From Shigella phage sb2: 64,000 nt of DNA. Below, piece after piece: positions 27,910-32,106 of the stretch (position 1 is its first letter; every line of letters starts with the position of its first letter). The stretch lies in the sequence record PQ666540, one strand, 5' to 3'. The notes under the pieces were generated by a model, which was given only the letters and a program-made list of their open reading frames with translations, did not search any database and was not told where the DNA came from. The translations under genes were made by a program, and so were the position numbers.

Positions 27910-27939
27910 ATTATAACACAACACGAGGGACTTGTAAAC
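27910..27939 (-). promoter_or_regulatory. early sigma70-type promoter (GTTTAC -35, TATAAT -10)
   Basis: Minus strand GTTTAC-18 nt-TATAAT followed by GAGGA ribosome-binding site and ATG of the 96-aa ORF. Confidence 0.55.
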
Positions 27940-29996
27940 TACATCTTGAACTTTTTAGACATTCCGTTGATGTTAACCAAAGAAGCCAAGATTTGAGAAA
28001 CTTCGTTTTCCTCTTCTTTTGATTCTTCTACAAGGAATTGATTAAACCCAGCCATTGGACGAACTTCACCAGTTTCCATTAGATGATCGCCATCATATAC
28101 CGATTCTTCTAATTGTTCAGAAGGAGGAACGATTGTGCCTTCGATTAGATACTTATTATAAGCAGTTTCTTTCATCATGTACGTGCTCACTTTATTAATC
28201 TTCAGCAAAATTCCACGCGGTAGAATAACTTCAGCTTCTGATGGAAATCCTGATAAATGACCTGGAACGATAACTTTGATTCGCTCAGCCCCTTTAATTA
28301 CCATACCTACACTAGTTTCAGCATCTTCATTAGCATATGCAGAATGACTACCCATATGCATTAAATCTTCAGCATCAACAGAACCTTCTCCTTCACCAGA
28401 AAATACTGCGCCGGAATCATCTAGAGCCATATAGTTTTTACCATGCTCACCGAAGATATTTGGTTTAAGCGATGTTGATACGAAGTTCTTGAAATAGAAC
28501 ATTTTATTTTCAATATTATGACGTAAAGTTTTAAAAGTAACTTCTTGACCACGATAAAGCGTAGTTCCCGGAGGAAGAACTGATCCTTTGGCGAATGCAG
28601 AATCCAGCGTCTCGATGTGTTTAATAGCTCGTTCCATATATTCTTCACGGGTAGAATCCGGTTTACCTAAAAGGAACGAGTTCATTTCAACATATGAATC
28701 TGCACAATAATCTTCAATTACATCAGACTCAGCCTGAGTTAATCCTTTTGGAGTTACTTCGGTGCTTGCGTATTCATATGCCTGAGCAGCAGATTCATTA
28801 ATCAATTTATAAATGCCATTCATGACAAATTGAATAATAGCTACCTTTTCGTCTGGTGCGGCTTTAGAACCTTTAACTAAATCATTGATAATTTTCTTAA
28901 TAACATCAAAGCTATTAGAAATATTAATGTCAGCGAGATCGCTCAAAATTTTATCGGTTTTATAATCAAAGAATTCTTTATTCTTTAAATATTCTTGAGA
29001 ACCTTGATGTGTTATATCGCTCTGCAGTCTGATAGACGGATCACGTAAACGTGCATTGGCCAATGCAATATGATTTCGGAAGCTTTCTAGTTCATAATCG
29101 TTAGATTTAAAACGAGAAGCACTTCTCATACCACCGATAGCTCCTTTGCCGAAGTTTGAACCAATCTGAATAACGCCAGAGTTCATTGGTCCTTCTGCTT
29201 TATATACCGGAACTTTAGATTCAAACTCTTGATATTTCTTAGCGGCGAAGCTATCACCCTGAAGTGAAGCATCGACAGTAGAATATTGAGCTTGTGCTGC
29301 TAATCGACGACTAATTTTAGTTTTCTGAATAACAGCTTGATCCGTGCGCTTATCATTTTCTAAAGCAATAGAAGCAGCAACAGCAACAGCTTTAGGAACA
29401 GCATTACCTGTTTTAACATCTACATAAACATCACCAACCTTTGATTCAACTTTTGTGAATAACTCAGTTGAAATAGGAGGTACACCTGGAATGTCTTCTA
29501 AATTGGCATTTTTACGGTAAACCATAATATATGCATACTTTTTATCGTAATCCCAGATTTCCTTTAAAAGAACATATCGACCTGCTCCTTTAGTACGTAC
29601 TAAACGGTCAGCAATAACTTGCATTTGACGAGCTGCGCCATTTGTTTTACTTTTTAGTACGCGGAATAGGCATGCATCAATTTTATACTGTTTCATTGTT
29701 TGAAGAGCAGTATCAAAAACAGCATTAATGACACCAATTGGATTTCCACCCAAGTTTTTAAGTTTAACTAATGATAGTTTCTCATTAACACCTATCATTA
29801 CGATATGCATCATTTTATCGCCTGGCTTAACGTTTTTATTTGTATCACCGCCAGAGGTGTATGTACAAAATCTAAATCCAGGAAGCACGCTTTCTTCACC
29901 GGCTTGAATAGCAAAAATTTGAGGTATTTTATGCTTAGGATTTAATTTAACAACCGGCGCCGAAGCGCCGTCAAATAATTCTGTAATAAGTTCCAT
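27939..29996 (-). CDS. Alt-like mono-ADP-ribosyltransferase paralog
   Basis: 685-aa ORF; shares N-terminal MELITELFD and C-terminal R-S-E-type motifs (LYRG, FVSTSL, EVILPRG) with the adjacent alt gene. Confidence 0.8.
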   Translation of the reverse strand: MELITELFDGASAPVVKLNPKHKIPQIFAIQAGEESVLPGFRFCTYTSGGDTNKNVKPGDKMMHIVMIGVNEKLSLVKLKNLGGNPIGVINAVFDTALQTMKQYKIDACLFRVLKSKTNGAARQMQVIADRLVRTKGAGRYVLLKEIWDYDKKYAYIMVYRKNANLEDIPGVPPISTELFTKVESKVGDVYVDVKTGNAVPKAVAVAASIALENDKRTDQAVIQKTKISRRLAAQAQYSTVDASLQGDSFAAKKYQEFESKVPVYKAEGPMNSGVIQIGSNFGKGAIGGMRSASRFKSNDYELESFRNHIALANARLRDPSIRLQSDITHQGSQEYLKNKEFFDYKTDKILSDLADINISNSFDVIKKIINDLVKGSKAAPDEKVAIIQFVMNGIYKLINESAAQAYEYASTEVTPKGLTQAESDVIEDYCADSYVEMNSFLLGKPDSTREEYMERAIKHIETLDSAFAKGSVLPPGTTLYRGQEVTFKTLRHNIENKMFYFKNFVSTSLKPNIFGEHGKNYMALDDSGAVFSGEGEGSVDAEDLMHMGSHSAYANEDAETSVGMVIKGAERIKVIVPGHLSGFPSEAEVILPRGILLKINKVSTYMMKETAYNKYLIEGTIVPPSEQLEESVYDGDHLMETGEVRPMAGFNQFLVEESKEEENEVSQILASLVNINGMSKKFKM

Positions 29997-29999
29997 GAT

Positions 30000-32054
30000 T
30001 TATCCTTGAACGAACTTGTAAGGCATGTTTGTAATATCTATGCAAGACGCAATAATTCCAATAGATGATTCGACTTTCTGTTTAACATTTGATGAAACAA
30101 ATGATGCAAAATCAACTCTGTCTTCTATTTCAATATCACCTGTCATTGCAACTACTTCACCAGTTTCCATTAGACGGTCACCGTCATAAATTACTGATTC
30201 GGTGAGTTCTTCCGTAGTCATAACTTCAGCTTGAATAAGCTTGTTGTTAGTTTTAGCTGTTCCATCATTGTAAGATGCATCGGTTATTTTATTAACTTTG
30301 ACCATTAATCCACGTGGTAAAATGACTTCCATTTCATTTGAAGGCGCTAAACTTCCACCTGGTAAAACAACGTTGACTTTATCAGCCCCAGTAATAACCC
30401 ATCCAATTCCAACTAAATTATCGCTAGAATTAACAAGTCCTTCATCGTTTTTATCGATAGAAATGTTTAGACGCTTTTCGTCTGGTAAAACACCCACAGC
30501 TGAATCAGTCATCCAAGTACCAAAAATGTTTGGATATAATGATGTTGATACAAAATTTCTAAAATAAAAAACTCGATTTTTTACCAATGCTTCATATATT
30601 GAAGGTAACATTCGCTGTGAACGATATAAAGTAATACCTTTTGGCAGTCGATCACCATTTTTAAAGGCTGAATCTAAATTATCGATGGCTTGTTCTATTT
30701 CTGGTGCTGTTAAAATACTTGTACGCTCATCTGGATTATATAATCCCAAAAGAGCATTATTCATGTCTACATATCCTGAACCTACGTATTCACGAATTCC
30801 GCGTTTTTGTGCCGGTGTGTATTTAGATGAATCTTTATTTTCGACTATAGAATGCAATGACCATCCAACGGTAAGAGCATATCCACGTAATTCTCTTCGA
30901 ATAATCTTTGTTTTTATTGCATTCCAAGAATTTTGCACTAACTCATTCGCAGCATCTTGATTTAAATGCGAATGCTTGTTAATATTTCTTTCTAACCAAG
31001 CACCTTTATATTTTTCTAAAGTATCATCAACTATAGAAGCAATAGTTTCTAAAGTTTTTATTGAAGTAATAGATTCTTTTCGTAATCTTTCTAAAGCTTT
31101 ATTTTTTATTTCTGCATTAACATCAGATTCTTTATCTTCAGGAATTATAGAAGCTTCTCTGAATGCCATTCCAGCTGTAACACTATTAAGAGCATTCTCT
31201 AATGCAAATCCTGAAGTAGAAATAACAGTTAATTCGTTAGCATCAGAAATTAAAGGCGCGTCAGCGGGTTTATTTAATTCTGCTGCTGAAGCCTCAAATT
31301 TTTGAAACATTGGTCTTTCAAATCTAGAAGATTCCAATGACTGACTTTGCGCAATTGCTCTACGGGAAATTTTAACTTTAACTATTACAGCTTGATCAGA
31401 ACGTTTATCGTTTTCTTGCGCAATAGATGCTGCAATTGCCTCATTTTTAGTTACTTGAGCTCCAGTATCTTTATTGATATAAACATCACCGACCTTCGAT
31501 TCAACTTTAGTAAAGAGCTCGGTACTAATTTCAGGAACTCCTGGAATGTCTTCTAATGATACATTTTTGCGATGTATAAGAATATATGCATACTTTTTAT
31601 CGTAATCCCAGAGTTCCTTAAGAAGGACGTATCTGCCACCTGAACGACTGCGGATAAGTCTATCAGCAATAAGTTGAATTTGACGAGCTTGACCAGCAGT
31701 TTTAGACTTAAGAATACGGAGCATACAGGCATCAATTTTATACTGACGCATCGTCTGCATCGCAACAGTAAAAACTGAATTGATGTAATTAATTGGGCTT
31801 GGACCGAGACCTTTTAATTTAGCAATTGAGCCTTTAGCAGTTAATGTAAAAGGAACAATATGCATCATTTTATCGCCCATCTTTAAATCGCGATTAGTAT
31901 CACCTCCAGATGTATAGGTACATAAACGAAAGCCTGGCTGTTCAATTGCGTCATCAACATGAACTGAAAAAATTTGTGGTATTTTCTTCTTTGGATTTAA
32001 GTTTGTAATCGGAAGAGTAGTATCTTCGTCAAATAATTCTGTAATGAGTTCCAT
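30000..32054 (-). CDS. alt: Alt mono-ADP-ribosyltransferase, packaged internal protein
   Basis: 684-aa from second Met (T4 Alt 682 aa); motifs LYRS, FVSTSL, EVILPRG; N-terminal MELITELFDE. Confidence 0.9.
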   Translation of the reverse strand: MELITELFDEDTTLPITNLNPKKKIPQIFSVHVDDAIEQPGFRLCTYTSGGDTNRDLKMGDKMMHIVPFTLTAKGSIAKLKGLGPSPINYINSVFTVAMQTMRQYKIDACMLRILKSKTAGQARQIQLIADRLIRSRSGGRYVLLKELWDYDKKYAYILIHRKNVSLEDIPGVPEISTELFTKVESKVGDVYINKDTGAQVTKNEAIAASIAQENDKRSDQAVIVKVKISRRAIAQSQSLESSRFERPMFQKFEASAAELNKPADAPLISDANELTVISTSGFALENALNSVTAGMAFREASIIPEDKESDVNAEIKNKALERLRKESITSIKTLETIASIVDDTLEKYKGAWLERNINKHSHLNQDAANELVQNSWNAIKTKIIRRELRGYALTVGWSLHSIVENKDSSKYTPAQKRGIREYVGSGYVDMNNALLGLYNPDERTSILTAPEIEQAIDNLDSAFKNGDRLPKGITLYRSQRMLPSIYEALVKNRVFYFRNFVSTSLYPNIFGTWMTDSAVGVLPDEKRLNISIDKNDEGLVNSSDNLVGIGWVITGADKVNVVLPGGSLAPSNEMEVILPRGLMVKVNKITDASYNDGTAKTNNKLIQAEVMTTEELTESVIYDGDRLMETGEVVAMTGDIEIEDRVDFASFVSSNVKQKVESSIGIIASCIDITNMPYKFVQG

Positions 32055-32106
32055 CATATCCTCTCTAGTGTTTATTCTATTTATAAAATTAAAGGCCCGA
32101 AGGCCT

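Follow-up and report, generated by a model that had tools for sequence, protein, structure and literature searches.

An intact second Alt-family gene beside alt in the genome of Shigella phage sb2, and its deletion remnant in phage T4

The alt locus of Shigella phage sb2 (record PQ666540), contained in a stretch of 64,000 nucleotides that is called the window in the following, holds two adjacent genes of the Alt family of ADP-ribosyltransferases. The one referred to as copy B is the ortholog of T4 alt, and the one directly after it, referred to as copy A, is a full-length paralog. Copy A is an intact and functionally constrained gene of this family, and what T4 carries as the small genes alt.-1 and alt.-2 is not a partial duplication of alt but the remainder of the same gene after a microhomology-mediated deletion. 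The best explanation, which is considered likely, is that copy A encodes a functional second NAD+:arginine mono-ADP-ribosyltransferase that is packaged in the head and injected into the host, where its targets would probably differ from those of Alt.

The gene pair and its place

The window is a segment of a Tequatrovirus (T4-like) genome. The 4.9 kb around the two genes show 98.7% identity to Shigella phage pSs-1, and at least 80% of these 4.9 kb is covered by 391 phage records. A first-pass annotation, made from the sequence alone, had placed two adjacent open reading frames (ORFs) of 685 codons each on the minus strand; their coordinates are exactly as it gave them, and both belong to the Alt family.

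27939-29996, minus strand: copy A, 685-codon ORF, full-length alt paralog with the database labels 'alt.-2' or 'Alt-like'
30000-32057, minus strand: copy B, alt, T4-type allele, 685-codon ORF in which translation probably begins at the second ATG (32054)

The pair is flanked by alt.1 and the DNA ligase gene 30 (32107-33752) on one side and by alt.-3 and gene 54 (27588-27878 and 26594-27559) on the other, and this order matches the alt locus of T4 and also of T2 and T6. Copy B, which the first-pass annotation matched to T4 Alt, proved to be its ortholog with 96% amino acid identity to NP_049811. Copy A, for which a second ADP-ribosyltransferase had been proposed, is a paralog that is 42% identical to T4 Alt over 685 residues (BLASTP, E 6e-162) and that has kept the catalytic Arg, STS and ExE. 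The two copies were described as roughly half identical; they are indeed diverged homologues, but the measured identity is somewhat lower, at 41% over the full length with 56% positives (BLASTP, E 6e-162).

Family searches gave the same picture. The Pfam family PF03496 (ADPrib_exo_Tox) was found in copy A with 72.5 bits and in copy B with 117.9 bits, for a gathering cut-off of 23.4. Both were also assigned to phrog_802 'Alt-like RNA polymerase ADP-ribosyltransferase', which covers residues 1-685 of copy A with an E-value of 5.5e-255. In orthologs of copy A, the precomputed assignments comprise PF03496 together with the Alt-specific N-terminal region PF26846. No NCBIfam family matched copy A or copy B.

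At the level of short motifs, TTLYRG in copy A and ITLYRS in copy B were found as well as FVSTSL, EVILPRG, RYVLLKE and DIPGVP. The blocks KQYKIDAC and YDGDHLMETGEV had also been listed as common to both proteins; they are present in copy A but read RQYKIDAC and YDGDRLMETGEV in copy B. In the same way, the start MELITELFD is right for copy A, whereas the copy B frame as listed begins MMELITELFD with two consecutive ATGs, the second of which (32054) is the start in the T4 annotation.

Catalytic residues, fold and selection

The catalytic residues of copy A were located in an alignment of 19 sequences that spans A-type, JS10/KM16-type and Alt-type proteins, with residue numbers referring to copy A. 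All of them are present.

28551..28553, minus strand: catalytic Arg482 (in TTLYRG), invariant
28470..28478, minus strand: Ser507-Thr508-Ser509 (STS, in FVSTSL), Ser507 and Ser509 invariant
28230..28238, minus strand: Glu587-Ala-Glu589 (ExE), Glu587 and Glu589 invariant

The ExE motif is the signature of arginine-specific transferases of the C3/VIP2-type clade. The Arg and the ExE of Alt align with the catalytic Arg and the ExE (E-Y-E) of the Clostridioides difficile toxin component CdtA. In a sequence search of the PDB, full-length copy A had no match at E<0.01; only the C-terminal half of Alt reached any, namely CdtA with an E-value of 3e-4. The ARTT-type loop that precedes ExE differs between the two phage proteins, being GHLSGFPS in copy A versus GGSLAPSN in Alt.

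In an AlphaFold (AF2) model of copy A, with a mean pLDDT of 74, the N-terminal module is mixed alpha/beta, the middle is entirely helical and the C-terminal part forms a beta-core. For this core, Foldseek returned Vis (4xzj, E 1.4e-7), CDTa, C3 (C3bot), VIP2 and Certhrax from the PDB with a probability of 1.00 and a target TM of about 0.6. Alignment and model together delimit the following parts, the abbreviation ART standing for ADP-ribosyltransferase.

Copy A, minus strand, residues 1 to ~240: N-terminal module
Copy A, minus strand, residues ~240-415: hypervariable helical module
Copy A, minus strand, residues ~415-625: ART module
Copy A, minus strand, residues 632-685: propeptide-like tail

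The ratio of non-synonymous to synonymous substitution rates (dN/dS) was calculated for copy A from seven phages, namely the window, T2, T6, SH7, TP7, RB6 and Kha5h. Its mean pairwise value was 0.044 with a mean dS of 0.16, and the pairs displayed 29-90 synonymous versus 5-19 non-synonymous differences. Copy A is therefore under strong purifying selection. These data bear on the idea that it might be a duplicate in decay, or else a structural protein devoid of catalytic activity. Such an idea could find some support in the repeated deletion or truncation of the gene (T4-type and sutha-type phages, see below) and in T4 itself, the best-studied member, which lives without copy A and without a known defect. 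Nevertheless, a dN/dS of 0.044, a 685-codon frame intact in 401 records, the invariance of all catalytic residues and a confidently predicted ART fold do not fit with decay. Selection and conservation effectively refute this highly improbable reading, a pseudogene or dead enzyme being ruled out by the dN/dS and the invariant catalytic residues.

The remnant of copy A in T4

In T4, the position of copy A is occupied by the small ORFs alt.-1 (61 residues, NP_049810) and alt.-2 (67 residues, NP_049809), which the T4 record describes as 'an old duplication of the first part of gene alt'. Whether T4 alt.-2 was the same paralog had been left as a question by the first-pass annotation, and the answer is yes: alt.-1 and alt.-2 together are its frameshifted, internally deleted form. 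T4 shares about 97% DNA identity with copy A over its first 348 nucleotides and again from its last 20 nucleotides onward (97.1% and 96.6% in the two flanks). Blastn breakpoints and junction sequences showed that T4 lacks the 1,699 bp located between two copies of a 9-bp direct repeat, CTAAAAAGT. In T4, the gene is neither intact nor characterised.

29649..29657, minus strand: upstream CTAAAAAGT repeat, left breakpoint of the T4-type 1,699-bp deletion (blastn and junctions)
27950..27958, minus strand: downstream CTAAAAAGT repeat, right breakpoint of the T4-type deletion (blastn and junctions)
29833..29837, minus strand: A5 run at codons K54/N55 of copy A, one A of which is lost in T4 and ACG-C40 (pairwise DNA alignment)

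The loss of one A in the A5 run split the remnant into alt.-1 and alt.-2. Salmonella phage SG1 displays the same deletion junction with no frameshift, which indicates that the frameshift arose after the deletion. In parallel, the PHROG families of alt.-1-like and alt.-2-like proteins match copy A with E-values of 9e-40 and 3e-38, and copy B with 1e-21 and 2e-19. The records of RB6 and Kha5h give the name alt.-2 to the full-length gene.

The frameshift in the A run of T4 was also considered as an already described contingency switch. This was rejected, as the contingency-locus preprint makes no mention of alt and, with 1.7 kb of the gene deleted, a reversion would be of no consequence in T4.

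Distribution, losses and fusions

The segment that is deleted in T4 is covered to at least 80% in 401 phage records, T2 and T6 among them, while the T4-type junction is fully covered in 91. T4 thus represents the minority state, and an intact copy A is kept in about four in five (~80%) of the sequenced Tequatroviruses. In T2 and T6, copy A has 685 residues and directly follows alt. Orthologs in T2, T6, RB6, RB14/RB32/RB51, Kha5h, SH7, pSs-1 and other phages show 94-99% DNA identity, the same length and the same synteny, and the window copy A is one more member of this group with no difference of substance. What varies is the partner, as the alt allele is T4-type in the window and SH7, and T2/T6-type (697 residues) in T2, T6, RB6, Kha5h and TP7.

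Several lineages have lost or rearranged the pair. In Escherichia phage sutha (locus L009, 2925-5128), an independent deletion of about 1.9 kb has brought the end of a T2-type alt next to what is left of copy A, its last ~40 codons; the resulting 38-residue ORF is annotated as 'Alt-like RNA polymerase ADP-ribosyltransferase'. Yersinia phage PST (locus L006, 2650-4710) has one fused gene, whose head is that of Alt as far as about residue 101 and whose body is that of copy A. Comparable fusions of an Alt head to a copy A body, with other crossover points, were observed in the metagenomic proteins P0004, P0005 and P0007. These PST-type chimeras evidently stem from unequal recombination between the tandem paralogs. 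The DNA of copy A and copy B retains tracts of 71-94% identity that could mediate exchanges between the two genes. Of note, PST has an A-type enzyme with no canonical Alt body, yet its gene is annotated 'alt'.

Outside the genus, in WG01, dhabil, 44RR2.8t, JSE and vB_EcoM-VR5, tblastn matched alt-like sequence at two or three distinct sites of each genome. As far as such matches tell, multiple Alt paralogs are widespread beyond Tequatrovirus, in several other genera of the Tevenvirinae.

Modular divergence and the two forms of Alt

The divergence between copy A and Alt is unevenly spread along the proteins. The N-terminal ~240 residues show 52-75% identity and the ART domain 30-45%, whereas the middle module (~240-415) falls below 22% and is essentially unalignable. 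A conserved block, YDGD(H/R)LMETGEV, lies near the C-terminus.

Two forms of Alt itself exist. T4-type alleles (682-686 residues) were found in 174 records, including the window, SH7 and T4, and T2/T6-type alleles (697 residues) in 320. Towards both ends (the first ~240 and the last ~45 residues) the two types are about 100% identical, but in the middle module identity drops to 11-36%, and dN is 0.20 overall. This pattern looks like cassette replacement and not like gradual divergence. Copy A is more uniform across the genus than Alt. Moreover, JS10-type proteins from another genus are 42-45% identical to copy A in the middle module versus 13-14% to Alt, and 56% versus 38% in the ART module. 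Since they are nearer to copy A, the A lineage is older than Tequatrovirus.

These observations are relevant to the question of whether copy A is simply a redundant back-up of Alt, packaged and injected in the same way, acting on the same targets (Arg265 in the alpha subunit of RNA polymerase and the other Alt substrates) and adding dosage or robustness. The two proteins are alike in architecture, catalytic motifs and cleavage motifs, PST and the three metagenomic fusions show that phages with no other than an A-type enzyme can exist, and T4-type phages thrive with Alt only. On the other side, two separate and intact genes maintained under strong selection (dN/dS 0.044) in ~80% of the genus are unexpected for pure redundancy. 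The unalignable middle module, a loop before ExE that is unlike that of Alt, and the age and distinctness of the A lineage, seen from the closeness of the JS10-type proteins to it in the middle and ART modules, also argue against it. A purely redundant role is on the whole unlikely. The unrelated helical middle and the different substrate-recognition loop rather suggest that the target set of copy A probably differs from that of Alt.

A bolder possibility is that the alt locus is a recombining array of injected effectors, in which one head-packaging module would be combined with alternative bodies (A-type, T4-type Alt and T2/T6-type Alt). The A-type body, the more conserved one, would then modify some host protein left untouched by Alt, such as a component of a defence or toxin system. 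Alt is reported to modify MazF, a toxin component. When the locus is compared with polymorphic-toxin cassettes, the observations point both ways: a conserved N-terminal module is joined to diverged bodies and chimeras with a copy B head and a copy A body occur, but all bodies belong to the same enzyme family, and immunity genes and silent cassettes are absent. Such an array is rather unlikely. If true, the loss of copy A would contribute to the known differences in sensitivity to host defence between T4 and T2/T6, and the textbook figure of three phage ADP-ribosyltransferases, which derives from T4, would fall short of a genus norm of four.

Cleavage motifs, packaging and proposed mode of action

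T4 Alt is present in about 40 copies in the prohead core and is ejected with the DNA (PMC9958956, PMC9026906). The prohead protease gp21 cuts it after ITE-6 and LTE-619, which gives a mature enzyme of 68.2 kDa (PMC5694885). Copy B carries both of these published sites, and copy A carries a predicted counterpart of each.

29979..29987, minus strand: copy A codons 4-6 (I-T-E), predicted N-terminal gp21 motif, identical to ITE-6 of Alt
28104..28112, minus strand: copy A Leu629-Glu-Glu631, predicted C-terminal gp21 motif, aligned with LTE-619 of Alt

Both gp21-type motifs are kept in 19/19 aligned family members, the N-terminal one in the form (L/I)-x-E, and LEE-631 of copy A is followed by the invariant block S-(V)-YDGD. 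Residues 629-663 have low confidence in the model, so the C-terminal site is probably situated in a disordered linker. Cleavage at the two sites would leave residues 7-631 of copy A (69.0 kDa) and residues 7-619 of copy B (68.3 kDa). With such close masses the two proteins would nearly co-migrate, and this may be why classical gels never resolved copy A.

The C-terminal propeptides (27942-28103 and 30003-30197; ~54-65 residues) are acidic, with an isoelectric point of 4.2-4.6, and the predicted mature bodies are neutral to basic, with one of 7.7-8.2. The tails hold the family-invariant YDGD, E-x-G-E, F651, F654, K682 and F683. The presence of family-invariant residues in a part that is removed implies that the tail itself is under constraint, and it may act in targeting or keep the enzyme inactive before cleavage.

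The signals around the two genes allow a sequence of events to be proposed.

32078..32085, minus strand: late promoter box TATAAATA, about 20 nucleotides upstream of the alt ATG (pattern search)
27562..27583, unstranded: bidirectional hairpin resembling an intrinsic terminator, between alt.-3 and gene 54 (terminator scan)

The box TATAAATA is the consensus of T4 late promoters, and the pattern search found no second one on this strand within the alt region. Copy B and copy A are separated by 3 nucleotides, and the AAGGA ribosome-binding site of copy A lies inside the end of alt. Pattern search and terminator scan revealed no separate late promoter or terminator between the two genes, and the scan found no terminator downstream of TATAAATA until 27562-27583, the hairpin at which late transcription from alt probably stops. 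A single late transcript from the box would probably comprise copy B, copy A and alt.-3.

Under the preferred explanation, late transcription from this one promoter, upstream of alt, would include copy A along with alt, and translation of copy A would use its own AAGGA site, its start lying 3 nucleotides past the alt stop codon. The protein would enter the prohead core through the N-terminal module that it has in common with Alt. There gp21 would trim it after ITE-6 and LEE-631, and the mature enzyme, of about 69 kDa, would be ejected into the host with the DNA and ADP-ribosylate arginines of host proteins. The whole course, from late transcription together with alt through packaging, processing and injection to the specificity for arginine and a target range of its own, is a prediction drawn from sequence comparison.

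Several points weigh against this explanation. The evidence for late co-transcription consists of consensus matches, and that for a distinct target range of sequence divergence, which suggests it. No enzymatic assay of copy A was found in the searched literature, for which 'alt' is a noisy search word. Copy A is dispensable in several lineages, being deleted in the 91 T4-type records, lost or truncated independently in sutha and fused in PST. Finally, the virion proteome of Shigella phage SH7, which has both genes in its genome, lists Alt (119150-121210) but not copy A. This proteome detected only 14 proteins, with Alt itself represented by 2 peptides and 3% coverage, and is therefore weak negative evidence on the packaging of copy A.

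The missing detection in SH7 would also fit late synthesis of an active ADP-ribosyltransferase that stays unpackaged and acts within the infected cell on late host or phage proteins, in superinfection or in defence. As the second cistron after a gap of 3 nucleotides, copy A may in addition be translated at a lower level than Alt. However, the N-terminal module and both gp21 motifs have been kept under selection and would be pointless outside the prohead, and the SH7 data are too shallow to count for much. An unpackaged enzyme is thus improbable, and packaging together with Alt is still preferred.

Relation to known systems

The closest known system is head-packaged T4 Alt (gpAlt, NP_049811, UniProt P12726). 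Copy A belongs to the same length class and has the same three-module architecture with R, STS and ExE, the MELITE propeptide and the L-x-E|S-YDGD cleavage context, at the same locus and on the same strand. It is unlike Alt in the middle module, the ARTT-type loop and the C-terminal tail. T4 alt.-1/alt.-2 correspond to copy A in gene and position, but with 1,699 bp and one A lost. In its catalytic fold, with R, STS and ExE, copy A also resembles the R-S-E toxin clade of C3, VIP2, iota, CDTa, Vis and Certhrax. T4 ModA and ModB are phage R-S-E transferases as well, and their targets belong to the transcription and translation machinery of the host (PMC10468400). By their description they are set apart from copy A as early single-domain proteins of about 200 residues, encoded at another locus, with neither a packaging module nor gp21 motifs.

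A full-length tandem duplicate of alt, ORF187c, was described in Aeromonas phage 44RR, along with other alt paralogs, by Nolan et al. in 2006, who read T4 alt.-1/-2 as paralogs of alt and did not discuss the full-length gene of Tequatrovirus (PMC1524935). The alt paralogs of 44RR, from a different genus, are about 33% identical to copy A (tblastn). Literature searches on a second Alt (paralogs, T2/T6 and virion mass spectrometry) returned only this passing mention and the SH7 proteome. In RefSeq and in many GenBank records, both genes bear the annotation of Alt-like ADP-ribosyltransferases, and the tandem pair is a routine annotation across hundreds of Tequatrovirus genomes. Copy A is hence already known at the level of annotation and is functionally uncharacterised in the searched literature. 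What is added here is the demonstration of the T4 remnant, the recognition of the intact gene as the majority state under strong constraint, the conservation of both gp21 sites, and the dimorphism of the alt allele with recurrent recombination between heads and bodies.

The tandem pair is no new kind of system and will appear tidy more than surprising to a specialist. However, T4 is the reference for phage ADP-ribosylation through Alt, ModA and ModB, yet it is atypical at the alt locus, and its alt.-1/alt.-2 are corrected here from a partial duplication to a deletion remnant. Copy A offers a concrete and cheap experimental target in T2/T6-type phages. The main worth of the finding is to flag an unstudied and probably injected enzyme that the model phage T4 happens to lack.

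Other features around the pair

Beyond the pair itself, the following elements were noted.

27910..27938, minus strand: early or sigma-70-type promoter (G)TTTACA-17-TATAAT, 11/12 matches plus extended TG (promoter scan), serving alt.-3
27588..27878, minus strand: alt.-3, 96 residues, DUF5498 (Pfam PF17602, E 1.4e-64; T4 synteny)
32091..32108, minus strand: perfect hairpin AAAGGCC-TTCG-GGCCTTT, overlapping the alt.1 stop codon and directly upstream of the alt late promoter
32107-32295, minus strand: alt.1, 62 residues (Pfam PF24647 'Phage blade protein', E 3e-27)

The early-type promoter lies directly 3' of the copy A stop codon (27939-27941). In T4, mutants with a C-terminal extension of alt.-3 escape the CmdTAC defence by blocking the degradation of CmdA (PMC11618068). 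The alt.-3 of the window ends in ...SFRK-stop as in T4 and is followed by the terminator hairpin. The hairpin at 32091..32108 was absent from the output of the terminator scan, and a terminator role can therefore only be proposed for it. The neighbouring alt.1 is called 'siderophore-interacting protein' in one T6 record, which looks like an annotation-transfer error.

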